Source of the DNA: Gammaproteobacteria bacterium
GTDB lineage: Bacteria; Pseudomonadota; Gammaproteobacteria; Nevskiales; Nevskiaceae
DNA: 33,834 bases
Direction: 5' to 3'
Assembly (NCBI GenBank): GCA_043767605.1
Contig: JAYUGN010000152.1
Span: forward strand, 1-33,834
Positions 4,044 to 30,684 of this stretch are shown piece after piece. Below the pieces are notes generated by a model that had not been told where the DNA came from, searched no databases, and saw only the letters and a list, made by a program, of their open reading frames with translations. Position numbers and translations under genes: made by a program. Numbering within the stretch: position 1 is the stretch's first letter; the number at the start of each line of letters is the position of its first letter.

Positions 4044-4050
4044 GTTGTCC

Positions 4051-4566
4051 ATGCGAGGCCGCGCACATCAGCTGCTGTTGTGCGCGGCCTTGCTGTTTGC
4101 GGGCTGCGCGGGAACCCCTGCGGCGCCAGAGTCCGCGGCCGCGGGTTCGCAGCCCGCGGATCTCGGCGAGCAGCGCAACCCGCTGGCGGTGGAAGCTGAC
4201 CGATTGCTCGAGGCCGATCGCGCGTTCGCCGCGCGCGTGCTCGAGAAAGGCGCGCCGGAGGCCTTCCACGATTACTTCGACAGCCAGGGCGTGCGGCTGA
4301 CCTTCGATGGCGAGCCGCCGCTCGGGCCCGATGTCGTGGCGCAAAGCCTCGAGAACGCGCCGCTGCTGCTGAGCTGGGATCCGCGCTACGCGGAAGTTTT
4401 CGCACCCGGCGGCTGGGGCGTGACCTGGGGCGACTGGCAGGCTTACGAGACGGGCGCGGGCGGCAAGCGCCTCGGCCAGGGCCGCTACCTCAATGTCTGG
4501 AAAAAACAGCGCGACGGCAGCTGGAAGGTGCACATGAACCTGACGCCGGCGCAGGCGGCACCGTAA
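4051..4566 (+). CDS. small lipoprotein, SnoaL/DUF4440-like (NTF2 fold) by motif
   Basis: MRGRAHQLLLCAALLFAGC signal plus lipobox. C-terminal YLNVWKKQRDGSWKVHMN is typical of DUF4440/ketosteroid-isomerase-like proteins. The ATG at 4051 is preferred over the TTG at 4045. Confidence 0.6.
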   Translation: MRGRAHQLLLCAALLFAGCAGTPAAPESAAAGSQPADLGEQRNPLAVEADRLLEADRAFAARVLEKGAPEAFHDYFDSQGVRLTFDGEPPLGPDVVAQSLENAPLLLSWDPRYAEVFAPGGWGVTWGDWQAYETGAGGKRLGQGRYLNVWKKQRDGSWKVHMNLTPAQAAP

Positions 4567-5630
4567 TCCTGGGCGTAGCGCCGTAGGCTGGGCTGACTCC
4601 CGCGAAAGCGGGGGGAAGCCCAGCATCCGAGGAGCAGCGCCAGCAACACGCCCGGCGACAGCGACCCCGCGCTCGTACCGTCGCGCGCTTGCCGCATCTC
4701 GGCGTCCTCGATGAACTTCCGGTACTCCGCCACGATCGGCGCATCGATCCGCAAATCGTTGTGGTACGTGCCCGGAAACTGGCGGTTGTCGGCGCCCTTC
4801 AGCAGCGGGCTCTGCGCGTAAGTCGGGCCTTCGAAAGCCGGATCGCCGGCGCCGGTGCCGTCGTACACCGTCAGCCACTGCGCCGGGCCATAGCTTTCGT
4901 CGTCGCCGTTGGGGCCATTGAGCTCGGCCAGCCAGGGCGTACCGGCCGCGATCTCGTCGCAGGAATTGAGCTGGCCCTGCGAGCCCTCGGGACAGAAGCT
5001 CGTGCCATGGTTGGCGCCCGCGATCGCGACGAAGGCGACGAGGTCGCGCCGCAATTCCGGGTGCACCTTGAGCAGCTTGCGTCCGAGCGTGACGCCCAGC
5101 GAGTGCGCGGCGATCGAGAATTTCTCAGAGCCGGTGTAGGCGCGCACGGTCATGACGAAGTCGTAGAGATCCGGAACGTTCACGTCGTTGCTCGTCACCA
5201 CGGCATTGCAGCCCGCCGCGCCGCAGACTTCCGTGTGCTCGGCGTCCCGCTCGGGATTGGTGCGCATCGTCGCGGAGCCGTTGGAACCGCCCGCGCCGTT
5301 GTACGCCAGGCCCCAAAGTTCCTGGTTGGTCCAGCCCGCGGCCTTGAAGTCGTCGCGCACCGGGTACCAGTCGGCGTGGTCCACGTCGTTGCCGTGGACC
5401 ATGATCAGCGGCACGTGTCGCCGCGCCGCGCCACGCTCGATGCCGCCGAAACCGCCGATCTCGTAGTCGGGCCACTGGTGGTCGACGAGGTGCGGAAAGT
5501 CGGCCGCAAAAACACGCTTGGCCGCGGCCTGCGGCTTGTCGGGGATCGCCTGCGCCGCGAGCGCGCCGCTCGTGGCGAGCAGCAGTGACAGGGCGAGCGC
5601 GCTATTCCACGTAGTCCAGGTTCTTGCCAT
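4485..5630 (-). CDS. secreted alpha/beta-hydrolase lipase/esterase (lipase class 2 / PhaZ7-like by motif); 3' end uncertain
   Basis: Sec signal MARTWTTWNSALALSLLLATSGALAAQA, then PLIMVHGN and the nucleophile elbow AHSLG. Clear paralog of 7550-9016 (PWLAELNG / PWLAQLN, YDGTGAGD / YDGTGWGD). The last ~47 codons read through the REP element and overlap the convergent gene. Confidence 0.75.
   Translation of the reverse strand: MARTWTTWNSALALSLLLATSGALAAQAIPDKPQAAAKRVFAADFPHLVDHQWPDYEIGGFGGIERGAARRHVPLIMVHGNDVDHADWYPVRDDFKAAGWTNQELWGLAYNGAGGSNGSATMRTNPERDAEHTEVCGAAGCNAVVTSNDVNVPDLYDFVMTVRAYTGSEKFSIAAHSLGVTLGRKLLKVHPELRRDLVAFVAIAGANHGTSFCPEGSQGQLNSCDEIAAGTPWLAELNGPNGDDESYGPAQWLTVYDGTGAGDPAFEGPTYAQSPLLKGADNRQFPGTYHNDLRIDAPIVAEYRKFIEDAEMRQARDGTSAGSLSPGVLLALLLGCWASPRFRGSQPSLRRYAQDYGAACAGVRFMCTFQLPSRCFFQTLR
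4586..4628. repeat. REP-like nested palindromic element, copy 1
   Basis: GGCTGGGCTGACTCCCGCGAAAGCGGGGGGAAGCCCAGCATCC. Outer stem GCTGGGCT/AGCCCAGC, inner stem CCCGC-GAAA-GCGGG. Near-identical to 22263-22304. Lies just after the stop of the 4051-4566 gene and inside the 3' tail of the lipase ORF. Confidence 0.65.
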
Positions 5631-6810
5631 AGGTTTCCTGCAGTGCAGTGAGGCCGAGGAAGGCCAGCCCGAACACGACCAGCCCGATCAGCAGGGTGCC
5701 GGGAATCAGACCGGTCGCGGGCCAGATCGCGGTCAGCGTGAGCGTGACCGGCACGATCGTGGCGCGCACGAAATTCGGCACCGAAGTGGCGACGGTCGCG
5801 CGGATGTCGGTGCCGAACTGCTCGGCAGCGGTGGTCACGAACACGGTCCAGTACCCCTGCGCGAGGCCGATCGCGAACATCAGCGCGCAATAGGTGCTGA
5901 CACTGGCGCCTTCCCGTGTCAGCAGCGCGGCCAGCAAGATCATCAGCAGGACGAGGCAGGCCTGGATCACGCGCTTGCGTGTGCCCAGCCATTCGCTGGC
6001 CAGGCCGGTGAGTGCACTGCCGAGCGCAAGGCCCAGCGCCTGCCACCGCAGTGCCTGCGCCACCGTCAGCGGCTCGGTGAGCGCGAGCGCCTTGCCGTAT
6101 TCCGGCGCGAGGTTCACGAACAGCGCGGAGACATACCAGATCGGCACGCCGACGGCGATCACGGCAAAAAACTTCCGCAGTCGCGGCGCGGACCGCAACA
6201 ACAGGGTGATGTCGCCGGCGTGCGCCCCGGCAGCCTTGCGGACGCTATAGAGATCCGATTCGCGCAGGCCGTACCAGCGCCCGGCCATCACGGCCAGGCC
6301 CATGACGCCGCCGACGATGTAGGCGGTGCGCCACTCGAACATCACGCCAACGTACGAGGCGGTGAGTGCGCCGACCAGCCCGAGGAACGAAATGACCGTA
6401 GTGCCGTAACCGCGGAATTTCGCCGGCATCAGCTCGGCGACCAGCGTCACGCCCATGCCCAGCTCGCCGGCCAGGCCCACGCCGGCTATGAAGCGCAGCA
6501 CGGCGTACTGCTGCGGGCTGTCGATGAAGCCGTTGGCGATGTTGGCCAGCGAGTACAGGCCGATGGTCGAGAGCAGCGCCACGCGGCGGCCGAGCTTGTC
6601 GCCGACGATGCCCCACAGCACGCCGCCCACGAGCATGCCGATCATCTGCAGGTTCAGCAGCGCGATGCCCCAGGACGTGTTGTCCGCGCCGGTGAGGCCG
6701 AGCTCTGTCAGGCTCTTCACGCGCACGACGCCGAACAGCACGATGTCGTACAGGTCGACGAAATAGCCCAGCGCCGCGAAGCCGACGGAAAACGCGACCG
6801 TTCTTTTCAT
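5602..6810 (-). CDS. MFS transporter
   Basis: Start at MKRTVAF (6810), overlapping the phaB-like stop as ATGA. About 12 hydrophobic segments. MFS signature GDKLGRRVALL between TM2 and TM3. Confidence 0.85.
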   Translation of the reverse strand: MKRTVAFSVGFAALGYFVDLYDIVLFGVVRVKSLTELGLTGADNTSWGIALLNLQMIGMLVGGVLWGIVGDKLGRRVALLSTIGLYSLANIANGFIDSPQQYAVLRFIAGVGLAGELGMGVTLVAELMPAKFRGYGTTVISFLGLVGALTASYVGVMFEWRTAYIVGGVMGLAVMAGRWYGLRESDLYSVRKAAGAHAGDITLLLRSAPRLRKFFAVIAVGVPIWYVSALFVNLAPEYGKALALTEPLTVAQALRWQALGLALGSALTGLASEWLGTRKRVIQACLVLLMILLAALLTREGASVSTYCALMFAIGLAQGYWTVFVTTAAEQFGTDIRATVATSVPNFVRATIVPVTLTLTAIWPATGLIPGTLLIGLVVFGLAFLGLTALQETYGKNLDYVE

Positions 6811-7547
6811 GACATGTACAAGCCGCCATTCACGGCCAGGTTGGCGCCGGTGATGTAGCCCGACTCGTCGCTGCACAGGAACGCGACCACGCGCGCGATT
6901 TCACCGGGCTGTGCCATGCGGCCCAGCGGCACGCTCGCGACGACCTTCGCCAGCACCTCCGGCTTGATCGCCGCGGTCATCGGCGTCTCGACGTAGCCCG
7001 GCGAGACTGTGTTGACGGTCACGCCTTTCGCGGCGCCTTCCTGCGCCACCGCCATGGTGAAGCCGTGCATGCCGGCCTTGGCCGCGGAGTAGTTGGCCTG
7101 GCCGAACTGGCCTCTCTGGCCGTTCACCGAGGAGATGTTGACGATGCGGCCGAAGCCGCGCGCGCACATGCCCTCGAACACCGGCTGGGTGGCGTTGAAC
7201 ACGCTGTCGAGGTTGGAGCTGATGACCTCGCGCCACTGCTGCGGGTGCATCTTCGAAAGGCGCGCATCGCGCGTGATGCCGGCGGCGTTGACGAGGATGT
7301 CGACCGGCCCGAGCTGGCGCTCGATGGAAGCGATCGCGGCGGCGGCGGCGTCGAAGTTGCCGAGATCGCACAGTTCCACCACGACCGGGCAGCCGAGCGC
7401 GGCCTGCCAGGCGCCGATGCGCGTGGTTTCGGAAGGGTGGCCCAATGCACCGATGCGGCAGCCCGCCTTGGCAAGCGCGCGGCAGATCTCGGTGCCGATG
7501 GCGCCGGTGCCGCCGGTGACCAGCGCGATGCGCGCAGGAGGTTTCAT
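6807..7547 (-). CDS. phaB: acetoacetyl-CoA reductase-like SDR (PhaB/PhbB type)
   Basis: 246 aa. TGGTGAIG cofactor motif, and NISSVNGQRGQFGQANYSAAKAGMHGFT is the PhaB-type active-site block. No phaA or phaC nearby. Confidence 0.8.
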   Translation of the reverse strand: MKPPARIALVTGGTGAIGTEICRALAKAGCRIGALGHPSETTRIGAWQAALGCPVVVELCDLGNFDAAAAAIASIERQLGPVDILVNAAGITRDARLSKMHPQQWREVISSNLDSVFNATQPVFEGMCARGFGRIVNISSVNGQRGQFGQANYSAAKAGMHGFTMAVAQEGAAKGVTVNTVSPGYVETPMTAAIKPEVLAKVVASVPLGRMAQPGEIARVVAFLCSDESGYITGANLAVNGGLYMS

Positions 7548-7549
7548 GT

Positions 7550-9016
7550 TCAGCGGCCCAGCTTGCGTTCGCCGGCGTAGCGGTCTGGCACGGACGAATC
7601 GAACTGGCGCTCGAGCGTGTGCGCGCTCTCGGCTTTCTCGAGGCTGATGTCGTAGACGAGCTTCGCGGGCGCGCTGACGCGGCCATCGGGCGAGTAGGCC
7701 ACGGCCGTGACCGTGAGCGGCCCCGGCACGTAGACCGGCTCGCCATACAGGGGCGAGCCGCTGTCCGGCACGTTGCCCGTCGTCGTGTAGACGATGAAGG
7801 CATTGGGATCGCTGGCCCTCAGCTTGACCGACACCGGCTGCTCGTAAACGCCGCCGCGCGGCGAGGCGAAAAGGTGCAGCGTCTCGTCCTGGGCGGGCAC
7901 CTTCATCATGTAGCGCGACATCGGGCTCGACAGCTCGGTCGTCGGATCGTGCGCGTAGCAGGTATACAGCGCCAGCTCGCCGAGCTGCACCTGTTCGCGG
8001 CTGGGCGTGGTGCGGTCGGGGTAGCGGCCGCCGGTGGCGCAGTGCACGCGCGCGCTGGCCGGGTCGGCGCGCAGGCTGTCGCCCTCGCGCACCAGCGTCG
8101 GCGGCGTCGCCTCGGGCAGGGGCTCGGGCGACTTCTTGAAGAACTCGAGCATGGCGTCCAGCGTGCCGGGCTGGCGCGGCAGCTGCAGGTGGTCGAAGGA
8201 CGTGCCGTGCTCGACGTTGTACGCGAGGTTGTACGCGCCCTTCAGCGCGCTGTCGTTTTCGTGCGGCGGCGGGAACAGCACATCGCCCCAGCCGGTGCCG
8301 TCATACAGCGTCATGTAGCGCGTCGGTCCCGGCGTCTCGCCGTGGCGGTTGAGCTGCGCGAGCCACGGGCTGCCGGGCGCGAGCTCGAACGACACGACCC
8401 GGTTCTGTCCGCGTGCATCGGGCCAGGCGGTCCACACGCCCTGGTTGGCGCCGCAGGCGCCGACGAAGTTGCGCACCTTGTGCCAGTTGTTGGTCTGCTG
8501 CATCCACTGCCGCACCAGCGTGACGCCAAGCGAATGGCCGACGATGTCCACCTGTTGCACGGGGCGGCCGGTCTTCTTCGACAGGTAATCCATCACGCTG
8601 GTGACGATGCGATCCACGCTCGGCACCGACAGGTCGTCGCTGTCGAAATAGCGCACGTTGTCCCAGCCGTAACCCAGCGCCCAGACCTCGTCGTCGCTGT
8701 AGCCCGCCGCCTTCAGGTGTTCCCGTGCTGGCAGCCAGAAACGCGCCGAGACGGTGTTGCCGTGGATGAAGATCACCGGCGTGCGGTGCACGCCGCCGCC
8801 GTTGCCACCGAAGCCGACCATGCGCTGGTTGGTTTCATTCGAGATCGGCGGCGTGAAGTCGGCGGGAAAATCGCGCAGCGCCGGCGGGTCGATGCCGACT
8901 TTCGGCAGCAGCCATTCGCGGGGCGCGCAAGCGCTCGCGCCGAGGATGAGCGCCGCCATCCCCGCCCAGGCCGCGATCCCCGCGAAAGCGGGGACCCAGT
9001 TCTTGTTCGTCTTCAT
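7550..9016 (-). CDS. secreted lipase/esterase with C-terminal chitobiase/hexosaminidase-C-like (CHB_HEX_C) domain
   Basis: Signal peptide ending ILGASAC (possibly a lipoprotein). PVIFIHGN, GHSLG nucleophile elbow. C-terminal FASPRGGVYEQPVSVKLRASDPNAFIVYTTTGNVPDSGSPLYGEPVYV matches the CHB_HEX_C pattern as I recall it. Confidence 0.8.
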   Translation of the reverse strand: MKTNKNWVPAFAGIAAWAGMAALILGASACAPREWLLPKVGIDPPALRDFPADFTPPISNETNQRMVGFGGNGGGVHRTPVIFIHGNTVSARFWLPAREHLKAAGYSDDEVWALGYGWDNVRYFDSDDLSVPSVDRIVTSVMDYLSKKTGRPVQQVDIVGHSLGVTLVRQWMQQTNNWHKVRNFVGACGANQGVWTAWPDARGQNRVVSFELAPGSPWLAQLNRHGETPGPTRYMTLYDGTGWGDVLFPPPHENDSALKGAYNLAYNVEHGTSFDHLQLPRQPGTLDAMLEFFKKSPEPLPEATPPTLVREGDSLRADPASARVHCATGGRYPDRTTPSREQVQLGELALYTCYAHDPTTELSSPMSRYMMKVPAQDETLHLFASPRGGVYEQPVSVKLRASDPNAFIVYTTTGNVPDSGSPLYGEPVYVPGPLTVTAVAYSPDGRVSAPAKLVYDISLEKAESAHTLERQFDSSVPDRYAGERKLGR

Positions 9017-9026
9017 CGCATCCCCC

Positions 9027-10304
9027 TCACGGCGCCCAGAACAGGTAGACGAAGCGCAGCTCGTAGTACGGCGAGGCCGACACCGAGGCGGCCTCCTGCA
9101 CGGTGTTCTGCGTGGTGGCGGTGGTCAGGCAGGTGCCCGGCGTGCTGCCGGGAATGCAGTTGGCGCTGCGCGTGTAGGTGCCCGGATTGTTCGGATCCGG
9201 ATCGGCGTTGTAGATGTCGTAGACCACGTCGATCTGGCCGCCGCGGCCCTTGACCGGGATCGCCACCCGCGCGGCCACCACGGCCGAGGTGCGATAGATG
9301 TAATAGAACCCGGTGGTGAACAGCGCGCCCATGATCCCGCGATCCTGGTAGGTGCGTTGCTGTGGCGAGATGTAGAACGCCGAGGTGGAATTGCACAAAC
9401 CCGCGTCCACGAAGGACACGCCGAGGGAATTGTTGGTGCCGTTGTTGGTGTTGTCGCAGGCGGACTGCGCCTGGATCGGCTGGTCCTTCAGGTTCAGCGA
9501 ATACTTGTCGAAGTAGTTCGGTCCCACGGTCTTGCGATACGAGTAACCGGCATCCACGAACCAGTGCTCGCTGAGCTTGAAGGCCATGTTGCCCTCGAGG
9601 TTGCGCACGTCGGCGGGCCGCGTCGGCGTGAGGCCGCCGAAGCTCGGCGAGTCGTTGTCGCCGTTGATCTGCTGCGCGACGGTGCCGTCGAAGATCAGCC
9701 GGCCAAACAGCTCGGCGTGGCCGGCGAGCTGCGGAATGGTGGTCCAGTAGTTCGTGCCGGTGTTGAGCAGGGCGTCGGTGTCGTAGCGCCCGACCGGGAA
9801 CTTCACCGTGTTGGCGAGCAGGGCATTGAAGTGCAGCGGTCCCCAGACGTGGTCGTCGCCATAGATGCCGCAGAGCGCGTAGAAATCACCGAGGCCGCTG
9901 GCGCCGGAGGATTGGCCCGCGGTGAGGTCGCGCGCGACCACGGCCGAGCTGCCCTGCTGCCAGCCGAGCACGCCGATGCCGCGGCAGAATTGCGGGTGCG
10001 AGCTCAGGATCGGCACGTGGCTGTCGCGGAACGGATTGCCGATCCACAGCATCTTCAGCAGGAACAGGCTGGCGAAGACATCGTCGCCGCCGCCGATGAA
10101 GGGCGCGCCGGTGTGGACCTCCTTGCCGTCGCGGTTATAGATGCTCCGGATGTCGGTGAAGATGAAGGTGCCCTCGGTGTACTCGCCGGCGGGCAGGCGC
10201 GAGTACTCCCCCAGGTGCGGCGTGAACACGATGCCGGCGTGGGCCGGGGCGGCCAGCAGCGCCGCGCACAGCGCGGCAAGCAGGATCCGGGCTTTCATTT
10301 TCAT
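9027..10304 (-). CDS. putative outer-membrane beta-barrel protein
   Basis: Real start MKMKARILLAALCAALLAAPAHA at 10304, overlapping the upstream stop as ATGA. Alternating-residue strands, aromatic C-terminal strand (YYELRFVYLFWAP), paired Cys in predicted loops. Family not identified. Confidence 0.6.
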   Translation of the reverse strand: MKMKARILLAALCAALLAAPAHAGIVFTPHLGEYSRLPAGEYTEGTFIFTDIRSIYNRDGKEVHTGAPFIGGGDDVFASLFLLKMLWIGNPFRDSHVPILSSHPQFCRGIGVLGWQQGSSAVVARDLTAGQSSGASGLGDFYALCGIYGDDHVWGPLHFNALLANTVKFPVGRYDTDALLNTGTNYWTTIPQLAGHAELFGRLIFDGTVAQQINGDNDSPSFGGLTPTRPADVRNLEGNMAFKLSEHWFVDAGYSYRKTVGPNYFDKYSLNLKDQPIQAQSACDNTNNGTNNSLGVSFVDAGLCNSTSAFYISPQQRTYQDRGIMGALFTTGFYYIYRTSAVVAARVAIPVKGRGGQIDVVYDIYNADPDPNNPGTYTRSANCIPGSTPGTCLTTATTQNTVQEAASVSASPYYELRFVYLFWAP

Positions 10305-11536
10305 TTCTGGCACCCCGCGCAGGAAAACGCGTCGCCCAGGCCGAAGTGGTGGGTGACTGTGAGCATCAGGCTGTCGGAGCTGTAGCTGCGCGCGGAGCCC
10401 AGGCCGTCGACCAGGACCGGGCTGCCCGGCGCCTGCGTGTCGGTGCAGGTGGACGATGCCTGGCCGCCCGTGGCCGTGCACTGGCGGTTGGTGAAGGGCT
10501 GCATGAACTGCCCGCTCCTGCCGGACTGCGGCCGCGTGTAGTCCACCGACACGCGCCAGCGCTGCGCCAGGAAATACTGCACGCCGGCGCCATAGCTGCG
10601 CAGGGCGGTGCCGTCGTCGAAATACGTGCCGGGCGTGGGGAAATTGCGCGAGGTGAAGTTGCCGCCGGTGGGCATCGGCGCCGGCGGCGCGTTCGGCGTG
10701 AAGTCGAGGTTGCGGTACTGGTTCTGCTTGCCCTTGCGATCGGTGGCGAACAGCGACAGGTACAGCCCGGTGAAGACGCGCTGGCCGATGGACAGGTCGG
10801 CCAGGCGCTCGTCGCCCGCGCGAAACGGCGCCTCGTTGCCGAAGTCCGATTGGTAATTGACCGAGTGCACGCGATAGGCGTAACCGCCCTCCACCGAGCC
10901 GCCGGGCCACGGCGTGTCCCAGTGCGCGGCGAGTGCGCCGCTGAAGGCCCAGTGGTTGGTGCCGGCGTTGTTCGGGGATTCATGCTCGTAGACGCCGGTC
11001 GGCGCGTTGACGCCGGCGAGCAGCAGCACGTTCAGTGGCGAGTGTGCGCCGGTGCGCCAGCCGCTGGACGGCGCGCCGTACAGGTAGCTGCCGAACTCCA
11101 GCGTCAGGTCGCCCACGCCCTTGCCGTTGTTCTTCAGGCTGTCGGCGTTGGTCGCGGCGTCGTCGGACGAATCGGCTGCAAACGTTGCCAGCGCTCCGTC
11201 GGTGCGCGTGTCCACGTAGCGCAGGGTCACGCGCGCCAGGTGCATGCGGCTCGAGAAGAACGGCAGGCCCTGGCTCTCGAACATCGGGAAATGCCAAGTG
11301 AACGCATTCACCAGCGCGCGCTCGGGGAAGCTCGTTGCGCCATACGTCGGCGTCGCGCTGTCGCGGTCCGTGCCGCTCTGGTCGTAGCTGCTGTCGCGCG
11401 CATCCTGCACGTAGCCGCCGGTCCAGTAAAAAGACGGGTACAGGGGCTTGTATCGGCCGGGTTCCGGCGCGAGCTCCTGCGCCAGCGCGCCGCGCGCCAG
11501 CAGCAGCGCGGCCAGGGCAAGGCATCGGTGTTTCAT
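10301..11536 (-). CDS. putative outer-membrane beta-barrel protein
   Basis: Signal MKHRCLALAALLLARGALA, Gly/Tyr/Ser-rich beta-type composition. Start overlaps the ligase stop as ATGA. Unusual C-terminal CAGCQK instead of a terminal aromatic residue. Confidence 0.55.
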   Translation of the reverse strand: MKHRCLALAALLLARGALAQELAPEPGRYKPLYPSFYWTGGYVQDARDSSYDQSGTDRDSATPTYGATSFPERALVNAFTWHFPMFESQGLPFFSSRMHLARVTLRYVDTRTDGALATFAADSSDDAATNADSLKNNGKGVGDLTLEFGSYLYGAPSSGWRTGAHSPLNVLLLAGVNAPTGVYEHESPNNAGTNHWAFSGALAAHWDTPWPGGSVEGGYAYRVHSVNYQSDFGNEAPFRAGDERLADLSIGQRVFTGLYLSLFATDRKGKQNQYRNLDFTPNAPPAPMPTGGNFTSRNFPTPGTYFDDGTALRSYGAGVQYFLAQRWRVSVDYTRPQSGRSGQFMQPFTNRQCTATGGQASSTCTDTQAPGSPVLVDGLGSARSYSSDSLMLTVTHHFGLGDAFSCAGCQK

Positions 11537-13014
11537 GCGGATCTCCTCGAGGATTCGTACAGCCGCTGGATCTCGGGCTTGGCGATCTTGCCAGCCCCGG
11601 TTTTCGGCAGCGATTCCAGCAACAGGAATTCAGTCGGAACCTTGTAGCCGGCGAGCCGGCTTTTCAGCTCGTGGCGCAGCAGGTCCACCGATAGCTGCGT
11701 GCCGGGACGCGCGGCGACGGCAGCCAGGCCGGTCTCGCCCCAGCGCGCGTCCGGGATCCCGATCACGGCGCATTCCGAGACGCCGCGGCACTGGCTTAGC
11801 ACGGCCTCGACCTCCGCCGGATAGACGTTTTCGCCGCCGGAGATATACATCTCCTTGCGGCGCCCGCAGATGTAATAGCGGCCGTCGTCGTCCTGCCGCG
11901 CGAGGTCGCCGGTCCACAGCCAGCCGTCGCGCAGCGTGGCTGCGGTTTCCGCGGGCTTGCGGAAATAGCCGGCGCAGACCATCGCGCCGCGCAGCGTGAG
12001 CTCGCCGGTGGCGCCAGCGGCAACCGGCGCGCCGCCGTCGGTGCGGATCACCGCCTCCAGTCCCGGCATCGGCCGGCCGACGGATTCCGGGAAACGCTGC
12101 GCCTCGTCCGTATCCATCGCAAAACAGTTCACGCCGCATTCCGTCATGCCGTAGCCGAGCTGGAAGCGGACACCGCGGCGCGCGAAGGCCTGGCGCAACA
12201 CGGGTGGGCAGGGCGCGCCGCCCGCGATCGCGAAGCGCACCGAGGAAAGGTCCGCGCCGGCGAAAGCCTCGCACTCAACAAGCATCTGGAACATGGTCGG
12301 CACCATGAACAGCACGCTGGCGCGGTGCTCCGCCGCCAGTTGCAGGTAATCGCCCGCGTCGAAGGTTTCGCTCCAGACCACGCGGCCGCCGGCATGCCAC
12401 AGCGGCGTGGCGAGCACGTTGAGCGCAGCGTGGAACGCCGGCGTGGCCTGGATCGCGCAGTCGTCCTCCGAGAGTTTCCACGCGGCCGCCGTGTTCTGGG
12501 CGTTGGCGTGGGTCTGGCGATACGGCAGCTGCGCGCCCTTGGGCAGGCCGGTGCTGCCGCCCGTGAACAGGATCATGTGGATGTCGTCGGCCTGCGGCTC
12601 GCGCGCGGGCAGTGCGGCCGCCGGCTTGGCGAGCCAGTCGGCGTAGCGCTCCAGCGGCAGCCGGCGCGCGCCGGTGGCCTGGGCTTTTTCCTCGTGCGCG
12701 CGGTCGTGCAGCAGCAGCGCGGGCTCGATGGTCGCGGCGATGCCTTGCTGCTCCGCCGCCGAGAGCCGGTAGTTGAACGGTGTGTAGATGAAGCCGAGCT
12801 TGGGCGCCGCCAGCAGCAGGTCCACGTGCGCAAGATGGTTCAGCGCGAGGATCGACACGCGATCGCCAGCGCGGATGCCCTCGGCCGCGAGCCTCGCGGC
12901 CAGCGTGCAGGCGCGCCGGTCGAGCTCGGCGTAGGTGAGCCAGCGGCCGCGCCAGAGCAGCGCGGGCCGTTCCGGCGAGAGCCGCGCGCGCCGCGCCGAA
13001 AGGTCGAAGCTCAT
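11533..13014 (-). CDS. acyl-CoA synthetase / AMP-dependent ligase (ANL superfamily)
   Basis: FTGGSTGLPKG (AMP-binding P-loop), GYGMTE, TGDLARQDDDGRYYICGRRKEMYISGGENVYPAEVE, C-terminal PKTGAGKI. Confidence 0.9.
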   Translation of the reverse strand: MSFDLSARRARLSPERPALLWRGRWLTYAELDRRACTLAARLAAEGIRAGDRVSILALNHLAHVDLLLAAPKLGFIYTPFNYRLSAAEQQGIAATIEPALLLHDRAHEEKAQATGARRLPLERYADWLAKPAAALPAREPQADDIHMILFTGGSTGLPKGAQLPYRQTHANAQNTAAAWKLSEDDCAIQATPAFHAALNVLATPLWHAGGRVVWSETFDAGDYLQLAAEHRASVLFMVPTMFQMLVECEAFAGADLSSVRFAIAGGAPCPPVLRQAFARRGVRFQLGYGMTECGVNCFAMDTDEAQRFPESVGRPMPGLEAVIRTDGGAPVAAGATGELTLRGAMVCAGYFRKPAETAATLRDGWLWTGDLARQDDDGRYYICGRRKEMYISGGENVYPAEVEAVLSQCRGVSECAVIGIPDARWGETGLAAVAARPGTQLSVDLLRHELKSRLAGYKVPTEFLLLESLPKTGAGKIAKPEIQRLYESSRRSA

Positions 13015-14039
13015 GCCGGGACGGCCACGGCGTGGCCGTGGTCACGGCCCCGATAGCGCACGCACATGGCATTCCAGACATAGCCGATGCCGGCCGCCAT
13101 CAGCACGCAGGTGTCGCCGCCCTTGATGCGGCCGGCGTCGCGCGCGAGCTTCAGCGACAGCAGCGGATCGACCTGGCCGATGTGGCCATAGTCCGAGAGA
13201 TAGATGGAGCGCTCGAGCGGGATGCCGAGGCGCGACAGCACGTTGTGGTGCGCGCTGCGCTTCATGTGCAGCACCGCGGCGTAGGCGACCTCGCCCGGCG
13301 TGATGCCGGACCGTTCGCAGGCCTCGCGCACGACCGTCACGAAATTCTCAAGCGACTTCTGCTCGAGCCGCGCCTTCATCCCCACCGGGTCCGGCACCTG
13401 CAGGCGGTATTGCGCGAGGTTGGCGGCGGTGAGCGGCTCGCGCGTGCCGCCGACGGGCACGATCACGTCGTCGGAAAAACTGCCGTCGGTGCGGAACGAG
13501 GCGCCGAGGATCTCGAAGCCCGGGCCGTCTTCCTTCACCACCGCCGCGCCGCCACCGGCGGCAAGGTTGTAGAGGAAACGCACGTTCGGGTCCTGATACG
13601 ACACCAGGTCGGCGTTGCGGTAGCCGCCGGCGATCAGCAGCGTGCTGACGCCGTCGGCCTTGATCATGTCGCTGGCGAGCTTCAGGCCCAGGACCGCTGT
13701 GCCGCACTTCTGGCCGAGGTCGAAGGCGTAGGCGCGCGAGGCGCCGAGCTCGTGCGCGGTCTTGATGCCCGCGGTCCAGACCGGGAATTCCTTGTGCTCC
13801 TCCGTCATCGAGATGACGACGTCGAGCTCCGCGGCGGCGACGCCGGCGTCCTTCAGCGCCTCGCGCGCGGCGTGCACGCCCATCGCATTGGTGTGGTCGT
13901 CGGGGCCGGGCACGGTCTTGCGGGCAAGGCCCATTTTTTCGCGAACGATGTTCTCGGGCACGCCCGAGGCCGCCGAAATGTCGGCCGCAGTGTGGCGCCC
14001 GTTGGGCAGGTAAATGCCGAGTCCCGCGATGACCGCCAT
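13011..14039 (-). CDS. KAS III (FabH)-like thiolase-fold enzyme, non-canonical active-site motif
   Basis: 342 aa. Nucleophile Cys112 (AFDLGQKCGTAV; codon 13704-13706) and His258. The FabH GNTS Asn motif is replaced by YGHIGQVD (His286 codon 13182-13184). Stop overlaps the ligase start as ATGA. Confidence 0.85.
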   Translation of the reverse strand: MAVIAGLGIYLPNGRHTAADISAASGVPENIVREKMGLARKTVPGPDDHTNAMGVHAAREALKDAGVAAAELDVVISMTEEHKEFPVWTAGIKTAHELGASRAYAFDLGQKCGTAVLGLKLASDMIKADGVSTLLIAGGYRNADLVSYQDPNVRFLYNLAAGGGAAVVKEDGPGFEILGASFRTDGSFSDDVIVPVGGTREPLTAANLAQYRLQVPDPVGMKARLEQKSLENFVTVVREACERSGITPGEVAYAAVLHMKRSAHHNVLSRLGIPLERSIYLSDYGHIGQVDPLLSLKLARDAGRIKGGDTCVLMAAGIGYVWNAMCVRYRGRDHGHAVAVPA

Positions 14040-14043
14040 CGGA

Positions 14044-14655
14044 TCAGGCTTTGCCAGGCCCCATGCCGCGGGTCACGAAGCGCATGACTTCCTCGATCAC
14101 TTCCTTCGAGGGCTGCTTCTTCTGCCACAGGCACCAGCGCAAGCCGAGGAAATGGCCGATGCCCATCATCGACCAGGCGCGCACCTCGGAATCGCCGGGC
14201 GTGAGCTCGCCGTCGCGCGCGGCGCGATCGAGCGCGGCGCCGTACCCCTCGGCGATTTTCTCGTAGTACTCGCGGAACACCTGCGGGTCCACGAACTGCG
14301 ATTCCTGCACGATGCGGTACAGGCCGCGGTGCTTGTGGGTGAACTCGAGGAAGGCTTCCATGCCGAGGCGCTCGGCCTCGACGCGGTTGCCGGCCTTCGC
14401 AATCGCCTGCGCCGAATGCGAGCGCAGCTGGTGGCCGATGTCGCGCACCAGCGTGAGGAACAGTTCTTCCTTGCTGCGGAAGTACAGGTAGAAGGTGCCC
14501 TGCGCGACGTCGGCGCGCTGCGTGATCGAACTGACGGAGGCGCCGTGGTAACCCTTGGCGCCGAACTCCTGTTCGGCGGCGTTCAACAGGCGGCGACGGG
14601 TGGCTTCGCCACGGGCAGTGACGGGGGGCGGCAGCGGGTTCGCGTGGGAGGCCAT
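14044..14655 (-). CDS. TetR/AcrR-family transcriptional regulator
   Basis: N-terminal HTH: TRRRLLNAAEQEFGAKGYHGASVSSITQRADVAQGTFYLYFRSKEELF. Only 4 nt separate its stop from the KAS III-like start. Confidence 0.9.
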   Translation of the reverse strand: MASHANPLPPPVTARGEATRRRLLNAAEQEFGAKGYHGASVSSITQRADVAQGTFYLYFRSKEELFLTLVRDIGHQLRSHSAQAIAKAGNRVEAERLGMEAFLEFTHKHRGLYRIVQESQFVDPQVFREYYEKIAEGYGAALDRAARDGELTPGDSEVRAWSMMGIGHFLGLRWCLWQKKQPSKEVIEEVMRFVTRGMGPGKA

Positions 14656-14668
14656 GGCTACTCCGATA

Positions 14669-14689
14669 TGACACCTGAATCAGGAGTCA
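14669..14689 (-). promoter_or_regulatory. 21-bp palindrome, candidate TetR operator
   Basis: TGACACCTGA-A-TCAGGAGTCA (9/10 arm symmetry). Located 14-34 nt upstream of the TetR ATG and immediately downstream of the predicted -10. Confidence 0.5.
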
Positions 14690-14692
14690 TAG

Positions 14693-14721
14693 AGCTTATT
14701 CCCTGCAAGGCAGGGAGTCAA
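14693..14721 (-). promoter_or_regulatory. sigma70-type promoter candidate for the TetR-headed operon
   Basis: Read on the minus strand: TTGACT (14721-14716), 17-nt spacer, TAAGCT (14698-14693). GGAG RBS 6 nt before the ATG. Confidence 0.45.
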
Positions 14722-24937: not shown

Positions 24938-24967
24938 GCGGGGGGCCCGCCGCAACGGGCCCGCCGC
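24938..24967. terminator. GC-rich hairpin between convergent genes (bidirectional terminator candidate)
   Basis: GCGGGGGGCCCG-CCGCAA-CGGGCCCGCCGC, a 12-bp stem with one mismatch. No U-tract. Confidence 0.35.
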
Positions 24968-27900
24968 TATTGCTCGGTGCGGTTCCAGAACGTGCGGAAT
25001 CGCGTGGCGCCCGTGCCACTGCGGCATTGCAGATCGGAGGCGAGCACGCACTTGACCGAGCCGCCAACGCTCGCGGAATCGGCGACGTTGACGTACACCG
25101 GCGAGGCCGGGATGCCGGCGCTGGCCAGCGGCCGCGCGCGGTCGGCGGCGGAGTTGGCGCCGCCCGTGCTGCTCGCGCCGTCCGCGGTGTTGTAGTTGAA
25201 CGACGCCGTGCCATCGGCTTGCGACACGGTGTAGAACAGGCCGCTGCCTTCCGATGACGTGCAGCTCGTCGTGTTGTGCATGTCCGGTGGCAGGTAGCTC
25301 GTGAAGTACACGCGGTTGGCCGCGGTCAGCGCCGAGCTCAGGATTTTTTCGCCGGGGGTTGCCGTCAGCCGTACGCGCCAGCCCGCGCCGAGGTCCGGCG
25401 TGCAGCCACTGGTTTGCAGGCAGTCGCTGGTGACATCGGTGAGCTGGGTGGGCGTGAGCGGCGTGATGCCGGCCGCGCTGCCGACCGCGGTGCGCCGATC
25501 CTTGATCACGTAAAGACCATTTTCGGTGAACGTCTCCACGCCGGCGGCGCTGCGCGCGCGGCCGTAGTCGAGCGGGTCTTCGCGATCGCCGCTGCCGATC
25601 ACGATCGCGTCGTACGGGCCGGCCGCATCGCGCGCCAGCACCAGGTCCGGTTCGTGGAAGAAGCGGCGGTCGTCGCCCTTGGCGGACGCACCGGCAGCGT
25701 GGCGCCCGAGCTGCGCGACCAGCGTCAGGGTCCAGTCGCGCGGATCGCCCTTGAGATCCGCCCGCCACAGGTTGCCGCCCGTGTCGCCGACCAGGATGCG
25801 GTCGGCGTTGCCGTCGCCGTCGGTGTCCACCACGGTCAGCGCGGACGGGATGCTGTCCTTGAGTTCGACGTGGGTGTAGACGCGCGCGTCGCTGGCCGCG
25901 CCGGTGCTGGCGCCCTTCACGGCCTTCCAGATCAACGCGCCGGTCTCGGCGTCCACCACGTAGATCGCATTGCCCATGCTGTCGTCGGTGCCCATCGAGC
26001 CGGTCGAGGTCTGGCTGTTCTGGAACAGGCCGAGCAGAGTGCCGGTGTAGTCCTTGTTGGGATCGTAGCCGCCGCCGAAGAACACGGCGGGGCGCGTGGT
26101 GACGCCGCTCGCGCCGCTTCCGGTGCGCACGCGCGCGACGCGCGGCTGCGAGAAGGTGTAGCCCAGCTCCGGGAAGTCGATGGTGTCGTTGCCGATGCGC
26201 CACTGGAATTTCGGCACGGTGGGGTCGGTCACGTCCAGCGCGTACTGCACGCGGCCGCCGCGACGCATGCCGGCGTACAGCCAGGCGCGGTCGCCGTCGC
26301 CCGACTGGATCGTGCCGTCGCCATTCACGTCGCGCATATAGGCGGTGGGCACGCCGTCGAAGCCAACCACGCGCGCCGGTGTCGGCGCGTTCAGCGCGAG
26401 CTTCTGCTGGATCGCGAGCATCTCGAACGGCATGAACGCCCAGGCCTCGCCGCCGTTCTCGGCGCCGCCGGCGGTGGTGTTGCGGATGAAGTGCAGGAAG
26501 CCGTCATTGGTGTTGACCGCGATGTAGATGGCGGGATTGGTCTTGCTGTAGCCACCCAGCGCGCCGTAGTTGATCGGCAGCGGCCGGCTGTGCATCGGGT
26601 CGCCCATCAGCCACGGCCGCACCGCGCTGGGCGTCGCGAAGTCGTAGCCGCGAATGTAAGTCAGCAGCGCCAGCGCTTCGGGCGTGCTTCCGACACCGAG
26701 CGACCCCTGCACGGTTACTGCCGTCGTCAGGTCGGCGTTCAACGCTTGCAGTTCGGCGTGACCGCTGGCGTAAAGGTAGAGCTGCCGTGCGCCCGCGGCC
26801 GAGTTCGACATTCCCGGCGTGCCGGGAATCCTCGATCCCGCGCCGCCGAGTGTCACGGCGCGGCCATCGCGGCCGGCGATCACGCCGTTGGCCGGATCTG
26901 CCGCGATCGTGCTGCCGTCGGACCAGAAGGTGAGCGCGTCCTGGCGGATGCGCCCGTCCGAGGAAGTGGCCTCGCTGCCGTTCGCATCCACCATCCGCAC
27001 TTCGCGGCCGGGCGTGCAGCCGGTGTCGCCGGCGGCGCAAGTCGTGTCGAAGGCCTTGAGCTTCAGCTTCTTCACATTGCCCGGCCAGAACGGCTTCAGG
27101 CCGAGGTCCGGCTGGAACAGCGTGAGGTAGACGCTGTCCAGCGTCTCGGCGCGATTGAAGGCGTTGGTCGCCAGCGAGGGTGCGACGAAGGTCGTGCTGA
27201 CGCTGACCACCTGCCCGAGCAGGCTGCGCAGCGAATCCACCAGCGCAGCCGGATCCTCGCCCAGCGGCAGCGGCAGCGGCCGCGTCGTGCCGCCGCTGGA
27301 AGCGTACTCGGTGGTGGTGGCGTCGAAGGTCGCCGGGCTGCTGTTGCGCGGCGTCGGCGGCACGTAGAAATAGGACGTGACGTTCTGCGTGCCCTCGAGC
27401 AGCGGCACCGTGCCGAATGCGCTGGGCGAGCGCGCGAGGTCGGCGTCGTGCAGCCAGCCGACCACGGTTGCGAGCTTGTTGCTGGCGCCCGCCAGGCTGA
27501 TGCCGTCCATGCCGCCGCCGGCCAGCCCCGCGGTGATCGCGGCGTCGGAGTCGCCGTCGTTCGAGGTGACGTCCATCAGGAAATTGATGGTGTAGAGGCG
27601 GCTGCACCGCAGCGACACGGTCAGCGGCGAAAGGTACTTGCCGAGCGCTGGCACCTCTGCCGTCACGTCCCAGCTTGCCGCCGTGTTGTCGAGGTCGAGG
27701 TTGAGCGTGTTGTTGGTGCCGTAGTCGGTGTAACCGTTGTGGCCGTTGTAGAGCCCCTGACCGGTGAGGTAGCGGAAGTACTCGAAGAACAGCTCCTTGC
27801 CCTGCCACGGCGCCGAGCCGGCCGCGGGCAGGTTGTCGAGCTTGGCCAGGAACGGCGAGAGGTTCGCGCCCGGCGCGAGGCTCGAGGGCGTGGTCAACAG

Positions 27901-28374
27901 GTTCACCAGCTGGTCCACCGGCTTGATGCCGGCGGCGACGTACGCGCCGTTGCTGCAGCGCTGCAGGCCGAGCGGCAGCAACGGCCGAGGGCCGGCGCAG
28001 GCCGCGTCCTGCCCGTGGTTCAGCATCAGGCCGACCTGCACGCCGCTGGTCTGCAGCAGCGCCATGCGCATCGACAACCGGATCGCGTCGAAGTACGTGA
28101 ACGAGGCCAGTGCGGTCGGCAGCACGCAGCTGGGGCAGTTGTCGCGGAAATATTTCGCGGGCGCGCACATCGCCGCGCCGGCGCCGACCAGGGTGCAGCC
28201 GGCGTACACGGCCTGCTGCGCCTTGCGGGCATCGACGCTGAACATCACCAGCGGCTGCGACAGCGCCGGCGGCACGCGGTTGGCGTAGATGTCGGAGTCG
28301 GCCGCGCGCACCGTGCCCGCGGTGGCTCCCGCCAGCACGGCTCCGGCGAGCGCCACGGCACTGCGGGTGTTCAT
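24967..28374 (-). CDS. pilY1: type IV pilus tip-associated adhesin / assembly protein PilY1 (PilC family)
   Basis: Start MNTRSAVALAGAVLAGATAGTVRA at 28374, overlapping the pilX stop as ATGA. 1135 aa. C-terminal propeller with EF-hand-like loop DTDGDGNAD (25801-25827) followed by ILVGDTGGNLWRADL. Confidence 0.9.
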   Translation of the reverse strand: MNTRSAVALAGAVLAGATAGTVRAADSDIYANRVPPALSQPLVMFSVDARKAQQAVYAGCTLVGAGAAMCAPAKYFRDNCPSCVLPTALASFTYFDAIRLSMRMALLQTSGVQVGLMLNHGQDAACAGPRPLLPLGLQRCSNGAYVAAGIKPVDQLVNLLTTPSSLAPGANLSPFLAKLDNLPAAGSAPWQGKELFFEYFRYLTGQGLYNGHNGYTDYGTNNTLNLDLDNTAASWDVTAEVPALGKYLSPLTVSLRCSRLYTINFLMDVTSNDGDSDAAITAGLAGGGMDGISLAGASNKLATVVGWLHDADLARSPSAFGTVPLLEGTQNVTSYFYVPPTPRNSSPATFDATTTEYASSGGTTRPLPLPLGEDPAALVDSLRSLLGQVVSVSTTFVAPSLATNAFNRAETLDSVYLTLFQPDLGLKPFWPGNVKKLKLKAFDTTCAAGDTGCTPGREVRMVDANGSEATSSDGRIRQDALTFWSDGSTIAADPANGVIAGRDGRAVTLGGAGSRIPGTPGMSNSAAGARQLYLYASGHAELQALNADLTTAVTVQGSLGVGSTPEALALLTYIRGYDFATPSAVRPWLMGDPMHSRPLPINYGALGGYSKTNPAIYIAVNTNDGFLHFIRNTTAGGAENGGEAWAFMPFEMLAIQQKLALNAPTPARVVGFDGVPTAYMRDVNGDGTIQSGDGDRAWLYAGMRRGGRVQYALDVTDPTVPKFQWRIGNDTIDFPELGYTFSQPRVARVRTGSGASGVTTRPAVFFGGGYDPNKDYTGTLLGLFQNSQTSTGSMGTDDSMGNAIYVVDAETGALIWKAVKGASTGAASDARVYTHVELKDSIPSALTVVDTDGDGNADRILVGDTGGNLWRADLKGDPRDWTLTLVAQLGRHAAGASAKGDDRRFFHEPDLVLARDAAGPYDAIVIGSGDREDPLDYGRARSAAGVETFTENGLYVIKDRRTAVGSAAGITPLTPTQLTDVTSDCLQTSGCTPDLGAGWRVRLTATPGEKILSSALTAANRVYFTSYLPPDMHNTTSCTSSEGSGLFYTVSQADGTASFNYNTADGASSTGGANSAADRARPLASAGIPASPVYVNVADSASVGGSVKCVLASDLQCRSGTGATRFRTFWNRTEQ

Positions 28375-30561: not shown

Positions 30562-30620
30562 GACAGTCCCCTGACGCGAGGACTATCTTGTAGCGGGGGC
30601 CGGGTTGCCCCCATAGGACC

Positions 30621-30650: not shown

Positions 30651-30684
30651 GTTCTAGCCGCCGCTCAAGCGTGACTGGACAAGA

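Follow-up and report, generated by a model that had tools for sequence, protein, structure and literature searches.

A TetR-headed gene cluster of Nevskiaceae that may scavenge poly(3-hydroxybutyrate) or its oligomers

We describe a cluster of nine co-directional minus-strand genes that, according to the open reading frame (ORF) listing and translation, spans positions 4485–14655 of a 33,834-nt stretch of DNA (contig JAYUGN010000152.1, positions 1–33,834; assembly GCA_043767605.1, Gammaproteobacteria bacterium, Nevskiales; Nevskiaceae). This whole stretch is referred to below as the window. The cluster encodes a TetR-family repressor, an enzyme resembling 3-oxoacyl-acyl carrier protein (ACP) synthase III (KAS III), an AMP-forming acyl-CoA ligase of the ANL superfamily, two outer-membrane proteins (OMP1 and OMP2), two Lipase_2 hydrolases (LipA and LipB), a short-chain dehydrogenase/reductase (SDR) and a major facilitator superfamily (MFS) transporter. 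With a probability that we put at roughly 0.55, we read it as a TetR-repressed operon that scavenges an extracellular short-chain polyester, most likely poly(3-hydroxybutyrate) (PHB), amorphous PHB granules or 3-hydroxybutyrate (3HB) oligomers.

The observation that carries this reading is that one enzyme family, that of the KAS III-like protein, is constant over at least three phyla, and that an ester hydrolase, an acyl-CoA ligase, a 3-hydroxy/3-oxo oxidoreductase and an importer recur around it as non-orthologous proteins. Since the names that curated thresholds allow for the partners are those of PHB depolymerases, 3HB dehydrogenases and an acetoacetyl-CoA reductase, and since the best named relative of the window's own lipases is PhaZ7, the most economical reading is that the module assimilates 3HB units from PHB or its oligomers. 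A previous sequence-only reading of this DNA had suggested scavenging of polyhydroxyalkanoate or oligo-3HB, and the presence of PHB depolymerases, 3HB dehydrogenases and importers beside the same KAS III-like family in other phyla now lends that suggestion support.

In the scheme that we favor, LipA, as an outer-membrane-anchored lipoprotein of the PhaZ7/LipA class, would cleave the polyester at the cell surface, the two COG4313-type channels would carry the poorly soluble oligomers across the outer membrane, and LipB would then trim them. The MFS protein would import 3HB or short oligomers, the ANL ligase would form the CoA thioester, and the PhaB-type SDR would interconvert (R)-3-hydroxybutyryl-CoA and acetoacetyl-CoA; the KAS III-like enzyme, with its predicted Cys-His-His triad, would act on a short-chain (C4-type) thioester at this same node. 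The repressor, whose predicted operator spans phyla, would sense a thioester or acid of the pathway. The Nevskiales front end would be one rebuilt for a diderm envelope, comprising a surface lipoprotein depolymerase, two hydrophobic channels, an MFS transporter and, in this lineage, a second secreted hydrolase.

PHB, which is also sold as a bioplastic, is one of the main forms in which microbes store carbon and, to our knowledge, it is largely unknown how its poorly soluble breakdown products cross the Gram-negative envelope. If our reading is right, the two outer-membrane proteins become candidates for the passage of 3HB oligomers, LipA represents a PhaZ7-like depolymerase of a new, lipoprotein kind, and a function that can be tested is at hand for NF005308, a widespread family of FabH-like enzymes that is found repeatedly with PHB enzymes and importers in several phyla.

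The KAS III-like family and its gene partners across phyla

A one-genome-per-species scan yielded 80 KAS III-like loci; gene neighborhoods were clustered for 73 loci, and operator counts (see below) were made over 87. In high-GC loci, the choice of ORF was weighted by the G+C content of third codon positions (GC3). The KAS III-like homologs are 70–87% identical among the best 120 and 52–87% identical across phyla, and the 80 loci come from Nevskiales (Fontimonas, Sinimarinibacterium, Nevskia and Oceanococcus), Salinisphaera, many Trueperaceae, other Deinococcota including Meiothermus, and metagenome-assembled genomes (MAGs) of Bacillota. The loci numbered L006/L010 and L007/L009 (GCA_035526825.1, GCA_035526525.1) lie in MAGs labeled Verrucomicrobiia and Candidatus Binatia, which carry the cluster with Nevskiales flanking synteny and with 74–77% identity in the KAS III-like protein; these contigs are probably mis-binned.

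Both the tblastn map of the nine window proteins onto these loci and the neighbor clustering show the TetR, KAS III-like and ANL genes as a near-universal triad. In about 49 loci the KAS III-like gene has the TetR gene directly upstream, and the ANL gene accompanies it in 64 of the 73 clustered neighborhoods; the ANL gene is displaced in L008, and the short contig L007 yielded none. The OMP1-OMP2-LipA-SDR extension, with or without the MFS gene, is confined to Nevskiales-type loci and one MAG labeled Ectothiorhodospiraceae. Within these loci, the SDR gene is divergent from the TetR gene in Oceanococcus and L057. By tblastn the MFS gene was found in L004/L011, L008, L013–L016 and L025; it was not found in L006/L010, L017, L018 or L057 (it is absent in L006 and L018), and L007/L009, L021 and L023 end before its position.

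In Trueperaceae and Meiothermus the gene order is TetR, KAS III-like, ANL, alpha/beta hydrolase, LivKHMGF: the triad is followed by a complete Liv-type ATP-binding cassette (ABC) importer with its binding protein, and about half of the loci have a gene for a cytoplasmic alpha/beta hydrolase between the two. The Meiothermus cluster ends with an SDR that scores as a 3-hydroxybutyrate dehydrogenase (335 bits against a cut-off of 307). Downstream of the Liv genes, several Trueperaceae (L034, L042, L048, L055 and L059 among others) have a convergent pair encoding a zinc alcohol-dehydrogenase-like protein (~349 aa) and a pyridoxal phosphate-dependent acyltransferase-like protein (~401 aa), which looks by eye like tdh-kbl and is probably unrelated to the module. 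Over the whole family, which recurs in Nevskiales, Deinococcota and Bacillota, the KAS III-like gene is regularly accompanied by genes for an ANL ligase, for a hydrolase of the alpha/beta fold and for an importer that depends on a binding protein and is usually Liv-type. SDR genes are added in Bacillaceae relatives, Meiothermus and most gammaproteobacterial loci, whereas Trueperaceae have none.

The loci of cultured Bacillaceae and relatives were reached by a second homolog search, seeded with a Bacillota member. Their order, shared with Paenibacillus, is MalT-like regulator, LivKGFHM, KAS III-like, alpha/beta hydrolase, SDR, with the ANL gene a few genes away; the Rossellomorea locus also has a thiolase, Anaerobacillus has only a C-terminal ANL fragment, and the Paenibacillus cluster is followed by prpB, prpC and prpD. 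The hydrolase adjacent to the KAS III-like gene passes the cut-off of the equivalog model for intracellular short-chain-length polyhydroxyalkanoate (scl-PHA) depolymerase (300 bits) in all four Bacillales genomes tested, with 437, 410, 447 and 439 bits, and the SDRs of the Bacillaceae clusters pass FabG cut-offs (318 against 296 and 304 against 298 bits). Tumebacillus combines a FabG-like SDR, ANL, a regulator, the KAS III-like gene, LivKGFHM and a hydrolase with, further on, an extracellular type-1 scl-PHA depolymerase domain (315 bits against 150), a GntP permease and a 3-hydroxybutyrate dehydrogenase (368 bits against 307). In one further genome, two Opp-type importers flank the KAS III-like gene together with an SDR and a thiolase. 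Three of the four Bacillaceae/Paenibacillus loci also have a conserved 58–59-aa ORF (...QWRI(K/R)VTHVQ...) between the Liv permease and KAS III-like genes (L088 8810–8989; L089 8819–8995; L093 8815–8994); it has no Pfam match and, considered as a possible ACP, proved not to be ACP-like.

Binding-protein-dependent ABC systems work as importers only, so the flow through the module should be inward. This argues strongly against biosynthesis and export, whether of an acylated envelope lipid, the alternative that the sequence-only reading had left standing, or of a beta-lactone or an olefin, by an Ole-like quartet with the OMPs and MFS protein as exporters. The appeal of that idea is that thiolase-fold enzyme, ANL ligase, SDR and alpha/beta hydrolase are the four superfamilies of OleA, OleC, OleD and OleB, respectively, that MFS proteins can export, and that FapF-type secretion channels are discussed beside COG4313 proteins in papers on the Fap system. 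However, the same module in Deinococcota and Bacillota is tied to ABC importers, OleA structures match the KAS III-like enzyme weakly and partially (E ~2e-5, residues 26–146), and the SDR is of the classical PhaB type rather than the 3-beta-hydroxysteroid dehydrogenase type. The hydrolases, moreover, carry secretion signals, there is no ACP, acyltransferase or glycosyltransferase in the cluster, and no OleC-type name occurs among the 25 best of the 107 models matching the ANL ligase. We consider biosynthesis and export very unlikely, the least probable of the readings discussed here.

Predicted functions of the cluster proteins

The KAS III-like enzyme (13011–14039, minus strand) is a member of NCBIfam family NF005308/PRK06840, scoring 444 bits against a cut-off of 315 over residues 3–330, and falls short of the canonical FabH models (98 bits against 292 for TIGR00747; 110 against 249 for PRK09352). 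Its AlphaFold2 model (pLDDT 88.5) adopts the thiolase-like five-layer KAS III fold, and the best Foldseek matches are FabH, BioZ and Vibrio cholerae FabH2, with TM scores of 0.80–0.93; Aquifex FabH superposes with an rmsd of 2.2 Å and with TM scores of 0.84 (query) and 0.93 (target). In HMMER and MAFFT alignments Cys112 and His258 align with FabH Cys112 and His244, and the position of FabH Asn274 is occupied by His286, which is invariant in 31 family members. The alignments thus give a Cys112-His258-His286 triad in place of Cys-His-Asn, in keeping with the previous description of the enzyme as non-canonical. An invariant T/G-E80-E81-H-K83-E84 loop (EEHKE, residues 80–84) is also a signature of the NF005308 family. 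FabH Phe87, which restricts the primer of the Escherichia coli enzyme to short chains, has an aromatic counterpart here (Phe85 or Tyr); this would fit a C2–C4 substrate and suggests a short primer.

Cys-His-His is the triad of the decarboxylating KAS I/II enzymes, and the His-His pair in a FabH fold would favor condensation with a malonyl thioester. A changed third triad residue likewise marks KAS III-like acyltransferases such as CerJ and DpsC, and an acidic residue serves as base for non-decarboxylative or retro-Claisen chemistry in OleA and 3-hydroxy-3-methylglutaryl-CoA synthase (HMGS), a base that the conserved acidic loop could furnish here. Our tentative first choice is a decarboxylative condensation of the FabH/NphT7 kind; acyl transfer between ester, CoA or ACP seems less probable, and retro-Claisen thiolysis is doubtful, to the same degree as some other reaction altogether. 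An HMGS-like enzyme was considered on account of the N-terminal half, which resembles archaeal HMGS in NCBIfam matches, and was rejected: the predicted fold is closest to FabH, and HMGS is absent from the top 50 Foldseek matches. Glu80 precedes Cys112 by 32 residues, presumably the spacing of Glu79 and Cys111 in HMGS, and we keep this only as a hint of a general base. The presence of a true thiolase beside the KAS III-like gene in some relatives (L090 and L091) weakens the idea that the enzyme is merely a thiolase, which it probably is not; thiolase-fold processing, the last step of the sequence-only scheme, is conjectural.

A FabH-like condensing enzyme could also belong to a route for ester-bound short- or medium-chain fatty acids in general. 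Acids freed by the lipases would be taken in through the COG4313 channels and the MFS protein and converted to acyl-CoA by the ANL ligase; condensation with malonyl-ACP by the KAS III-like enzyme and ketoreduction by a FabG-type SDR would then bring the acid into type II fatty acid synthesis as a primer. Pseudomonas aeruginosa PA3286 reportedly condenses acyl-CoA with malonyl-ACP, and V. cholerae FabH2 is thought to work likewise. The fold and its structural neighbors (FabH, BioZ, and FabH2 crystallized with octanoyl-CoA) suit such a route, as do the Cys-His-His triad shared with decarboxylating KAS I/II, the Bacillaceae-cluster SDRs that score above FabG cut-offs, a FadD-like ligase, lipases from a true lipase/esterase family, and channels that handle hydrophobic molecules; the minimal Trueperaceae operon of ANL, KAS III-like enzyme, hydrolase and importer would suffice for it. 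It leaves unexplained, however, why PHB depolymerases and 3HB dehydrogenases that pass curated thresholds repeatedly lie alongside, and why a thiolase does. Liv-type and Opp-type importers would be unusual for fatty acids, the SDR of the window is PhaB-type rather than FabG-type, and the aromatic residue at the FabH Phe87 position would argue against medium or long chains. On balance we think this route unlikely.

Within the PHB reading, a bolder role for the KAS III-like enzyme can be imagined, to which we give only slight credence. An imported 3HB oligomer would be activated by the ANL ligase at its free carboxyl end, and the Cys-His-His enzyme would then cleave the oxoester bonds of the activated oligomer with CoA through an acyl-Cys intermediate, the reverse of a CerJ-type O-acyl transfer and a reaction new to the thiolase superfamily. 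If true, each monomer would be released as 3HB-CoA for a single ATP, an energy-sparing "oligoester thiolysis" conserved in Nevskiales, Deinococcota and Bacillota and coupled, in Nevskiales, to a depolymerase in the form of a surface lipoprotein and to the paired COG4313 channels.

The ANL ligase (11533–13014, minus strand, 493 aa; Pfam AMP-binding, 253 bits, plus AMP-binding_C) is encoded by a gene translationally coupled to the KAS III-like gene through an ATGA overlap (13011–13014). In the PDB it is closest to 8weu/8wev (fatty-acyl-/feruloyl-CoA synthetase, 330 bits), with FadD13, MatB and MenE next in line. The SDR (6807–7547, minus strand) is a classical, PhaB-type enzyme, as had been proposed: it passes the acetoacetyl-CoA reductase model TIGR01829 (351 bits against 302), its best PDB matches are acetoacetyl-CoA reductases (260–266 bits), and it falls below the PhaB equivalog NF042966 (178 bits against 436). 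The MFS protein (5602–6810, minus strand, 402 aa; Pfam MFS_1, 83 bits, plus Sugar_tr) has partial, below-cut-off matches to the aromatic-acid and sialate:H+ symporter subfamilies and is presumed to be the inner-membrane importer of the hydrolysis product.

Two of these matches invite a reading in terms of aromatic (hydroxycinnamate-type) esters, from which ferulate or coumarate would be released, imported through a Phenol_MetA_deg channel and an aromatic-acid-type MFS protein, activated by a feruloyl-CoA-synthetase-like ANL enzyme, and shortened in the side chain by beta-oxidation with the SDR and thiolase-fold enzyme. The closest PDB relative of the ligase was indeed deposited as a feruloyl-CoA synthetase (8wev, 330 bits), the best partial match of the MFS protein is the aromatic acid:H+ symporter subfamily, the OMPs belong to a "phenol degradation" family, a homogentisate pathway lies next door, and one Bacillota MAG has enoyl-CoA hydratase and aldehyde dehydrogenase genes nearby. 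Yet a hydratase is absent from the window's cluster and from most relatives, the MFS matches are far below cut-off, the SDR is PhaB-type, and the homogentisate genes are separated from the cluster by a peptidase gene and a divergently arranged MltD gene, which puts them outside the unit. The PHB-specific enzymes of the Bacillales context would also go unexplained, and we judge aromatic ester catabolism very unlikely.

LipA (7550–9016, minus strand) consists of a Lipase_2 catalytic domain (Pfam, 45 bits), a Cys-containing beta linker and a CHB_HEX_C beta-sandwich (CHB_HEX_C_1, 44 bits), the domain that the sequence-only reading had recognized in one of the two lipases. Cys30 of the lipobox (...ACAPRE), Ser162, Asp239 and His276 are invariant in 24 LipA homologs, which marks LipA as a conserved lipoprotein hydrolase, and Ser162-Asp239-His276 is probably its catalytic triad. 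The protein has a GHSLG motif and a PhaZ7-type Lipase_2 fold with Ser, Asp and His, and its N-terminal 130 aa match PhaZ7 with an E value of 1e-12. Foldseek searches with its AlphaFold2 model (pLDDT 83.7) returned PhaZ7, the two-domain lipase of Archaeoglobus fulgidus, Streptomyces MAS1 and Bacillus subtilis LipA at the top; PhaZ7 ranked first (E 1.9e-9), with a TM score on the target of only 0.42–0.46. The Pfam, sequence and Foldseek matches bear out the assignment of the two lipases to a Bacillus LipA/PhaZ7 class and do not decide between lipase and PHB depolymerase. The LipA family (~299 matches, every named one annotated just as a CHB_HEX_C-domain protein) looks restricted to Nevskiales.

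LipB (4485–5630, minus strand) is a paralog of LipA (32% identity) with a Sec signal peptide and a Lipase_2 domain (Pfam, 60 bits) and without CHB_HEX_C. Outside the window's own lineage it is missing, and in L004 its place is taken by a PcaD-like alpha/beta hydrolase. Its C-terminal segment (within 4485–4620), ...SAGSLSPGVLLALLLGCWASPRFRG, is hydrophobic and then basic and resembles a sorting signal of the GlyGly-CTERM or PEP-CTERM type; the NCBIfam scan matched no sorting-signal model to LipB. The ORF continues for ~40 codons past this tail and overlaps a convergent DUF4440 gene (4045–4566, plus strand) by 82 nt, an extension that may reflect a lost stop codon.

OMP1 (10301–11536) and OMP2 (9027–10304), both on the minus strand and both with a signal peptide, had been described as outer-membrane beta-barrels that could not be identified; the hidden Markov model (HMM) search places both in Phenol_MetA_deg (PF13557, COG4313), with 50.0 and 40.3 bits against a gathering threshold of 22. 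They are distant paralogs (25% identity over 227 aa) with mature lengths of ~390–400 aa. Single-sequence PDB searches with either protein gave no match, and a profile of 12 OMP2 orthologs has the COG4313 channel Pput2725 (4RL8) as its top PDB match, marginally (E 0.077, ~56 residues). OMP1 orthologs are confined to Nevskiales-type loci and L057. The C-terminus of OMP1 (10301–10330) bears the motif (Q/E)(G/R)D(A/T)F-x-C-x-G-C-x-x in 11 of 13 orthologs, without the usual aromatic beta-signal, and its paired cysteines point to a disulfide bond or to contact with a metal or a partner. OMP2 orthologs share the mature N-terminus GIVFTPHLSEY and always end in ...VYLFWAP. Channels of COG4313 are implicated in taking up hydrophobic molecules (PMC4493636).

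Several observations weigh against the PHB reading, for which the whole case is made from gene context and family models. Its central weakness is that the canonical route from 3HB to acetyl-CoA needs no KAS III-like enzyme and that two relatives have a true thiolase beside theirs, so that the role of the most conserved enzyme is left unexplained. The PhaZ7 equivalog NF050060 (450 bits) is reached by neither lipase (LipA 66 bits, residues 66–195 only; LipB 49 bits, residues 155–214 only), and Foldseek does not separate PhaZ7 from ordinary lipases for LipA. The ANL ligase is nearest to medium/long-chain and feruloyl-CoA ligases, not to known acetoacetyl-CoA synthetases. Between lineages, the hydrolases are not orthologous (22–30% identity) and the SDRs split into three subfamilies (PhaB-, FabG- and Bdh-like), and an SDR is absent from the Trueperaceae operons. 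Finally, 3HB monomer would not need dedicated hydrophobic outer-membrane channels.

Operon structure, operator and the rest of the window

Pfam and NCBIfam confirm the gene content and domains that had been read from the sequence, with the exception that the cluster was said to have ten genes; we count nine, the sum of the genes that were then named. The same nine genes are called in an identical copy of the cluster on independent metagenome contigs. They are tightly packed, with the four ATGA overlaps noted before (13011–13014, 11533–11536, 10301–10304 and 6807–6810) and the 29-nt overlap of the MFS and LipB genes (5602–5630). Gaps of 2–7 nt had been listed as well: those at 14040–14043 (4 nt) and 7548–7549 (2 nt) are of that size, whereas 9017–9026 measures 10 nt. 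Terminator-like hairpins occur between 3500 and 15000 at chance frequency (8 found against 6.7 expected from shuffled sequence). A single TetR-controlled transcription unit is plausible.

The TetR-family repressor (14044–14655, minus strand, 203 aa; Pfam TetR_N, 59 bits) has weak, below-cut-off NCBIfam resemblance to FasR, ScbR and Bacillus FadR. Upstream of its gene lies a palindrome (14668–14690, core 14669–14689, minus strand), which reads ATGACTCCTGATTCAGGTGTCAT, is built as ATGACTCCTGA-T-TCAGGTGTCAT, and overlaps the -10/+1 region of a putative promoter. A single copy of the pattern TGACNNCTGANTCAGNNGTCA is present in the window, where chance would give 0.04, and there is exactly one in each of 31 of the 87 related loci, many of them Trueperaceae, each time just upstream of the TetR gene; in an alignment of nine upstream regions the core TGA..C.TGA.TCA....TCA is invariant. 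The palindrome that had been pointed out at 14669–14689 is therefore real and conserved well beyond chance, and is a predicted operator that spans phyla. A TetR_N domain and an inverted repeat in the repressor's own promoter are both present, as expected for a repressor with a palindromic operator, and the protein is probably autoregulatory and ligand-responsive. The conserved operator/repressor pair could serve as a sensor for the metabolite of the pathway.

The putative sigma-70 promoter (14693–14721, minus strand) has a good -35 element, TTGACT (14721–14716), a 17-nt spacer and a -10 element, TAAGCT (14698–14693), that matches the consensus at only three of six positions. Of the nine aligned loci, five (the window, L004, L006, L007 and L008) have a TTGACA-type -35 element whose spacing to the operator is constant, and L013 has TTGCCA. 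The promoter had been called readable; its -35 element keeps a conserved distance to the operator, but owing to the weak -10 element a consensus promoter scan reports no promoter at 14693–14721.

A Pfam scan of the rest of the window found no PHB synthesis genes. Between 16415 and 22258, after a gene for a prolyl aminopeptidase (TIGR01249, 451 bits), comes a full set of genes leading from phenylalanine/tyrosine to fumarate (Biopterin_H hydroxylase, 4-hydroxyphenylpyruvate dioxygenase, homogentisate dioxygenase, fumarylacetoacetate hydrolase (FAH) and a glutathione S-transferase-type isomerase), which keeps its place beside the MltD-TetR cluster in related contigs and which we judge to be a separate unit. 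The first 2500 nt have a G+C content of 0.59–0.63, against 0.66–0.72 elsewhere in the window, and the ORFs there (85–1614 and 1562–2443) have low GC3 and no Pfam match; this may be foreign or non-coding DNA. At the other end, a 1455-aa ORF (24967–29334, minus strand), three fragments of which gave no Pfam match, adjoins type IV pilin-like genes (Tt1218-like, 29848–30561; ComP_DUS/N_methyl, 32921–33403), and 24967–33403 may be a pilus-associated locus.

Comparison with known systems

That the cluster fits no canonical pathway, as had been thought, agrees with the literature that we searched (PRK06840, 8WEV, KAS III-like enzyme with ligase and TetR, PHB depolymerase with KAS III), in which no characterized pathway matches the module; two B. 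cereus/B. thuringiensis papers give no locus context either. Database names of homologs go no further than "3-oxoacyl-ACP synthase" or "chitobiase C-terminal domain-containing protein". All of the proteins come from known superfamilies, and operons for PHB scavenging have been known before; for the architecture of the cluster and the function of the NF005308 family we found no prior description.

Of the systems that share its components, the OleABCD/beta-lactone clusters have the same four superfamilies, but the weak OleA match, the SDR subtype, the secreted hydrolases and the obligate importers of relatives set our cluster apart, and it is not a member of that group. The KAS III enzymes that use non-acetyl primers (V. 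cholerae FabH2, P. aeruginosa PA3286, BioZ and ZhuH) are like the window's enzyme in their FabH fold (TM 0.80–0.93), in the nucleophilic Cys and its His, and in having an enzyme that supplies acyl-CoA encoded next door. The NF005308 enzyme differs from them in the invariant His at the position of Asn274, in its EEHKE loop and in scores far below the cut-offs of the FabH HMMs, and its gene is found in import/hydrolase operons rather than in lipid or biotin synthesis clusters.

The outer-membrane proteins compare best with Pput2725, TcpY and SphA. Both match PF13557 above threshold, the OMP2 profile has Pput2725 as its marginal top PDB match, and the two lie inside what would be a substrate-specific operon, as TcpY and SphA do (PMC4493636). 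They are longer, at ~390–400 aa against the 270–320 aa typical of the family (PMC4493636), and unlike those channels they are two divergent paralogs that are always paired, beside a lipoprotein hydrolase, with a C-terminal CxGC in OMP1.

Loci with the Bacillus intracellular PHB depolymerase PhaZ (NF050089) are also close to the cluster. The depolymerase gene is the immediate neighbor of the orthologous KAS III-like gene, with an SDR gene alongside, in Neobacillus, Paenibacillus, Rossellomorea and Anaerobacillus, and an ANL gene lies within a few kb in the first three, whereas Anaerobacillus has the C-terminal fragment only. The window has no NF050089 member; its secreted Lipase_2 enzymes would fill the hydrolase role, and the Liv ABC importer is replaced by outer-membrane channels and an MFS protein. 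Finally, when the cluster is set beside PhaZ7 of Paucimonas lemoignei and the canonical 3HB route (Bdh, acetoacetyl-CoA synthetase or CoA transferase, and thiolase), the window likewise has secreted serine hydrolases of Lipase_2 fold, with PhaZ7 as their best relative in sequence and structure, and all the enzyme classes are represented: hydrolase, SDR (PhaB/Bdh-type), ANL for CoA activation, and thiolase fold. The differences are that LipA and LipB reach only 66 and 49 of the 450 bits, that LipA is a lipoprotein with an added CHB_HEX_C domain, that the ligase is a 493-aa FadD/FCS-like protein and the thiolase-fold member a FabH-like Cys-His-His enzyme instead of a thiolase, and that the window adds two COG4313 channels and an MFS transporter.

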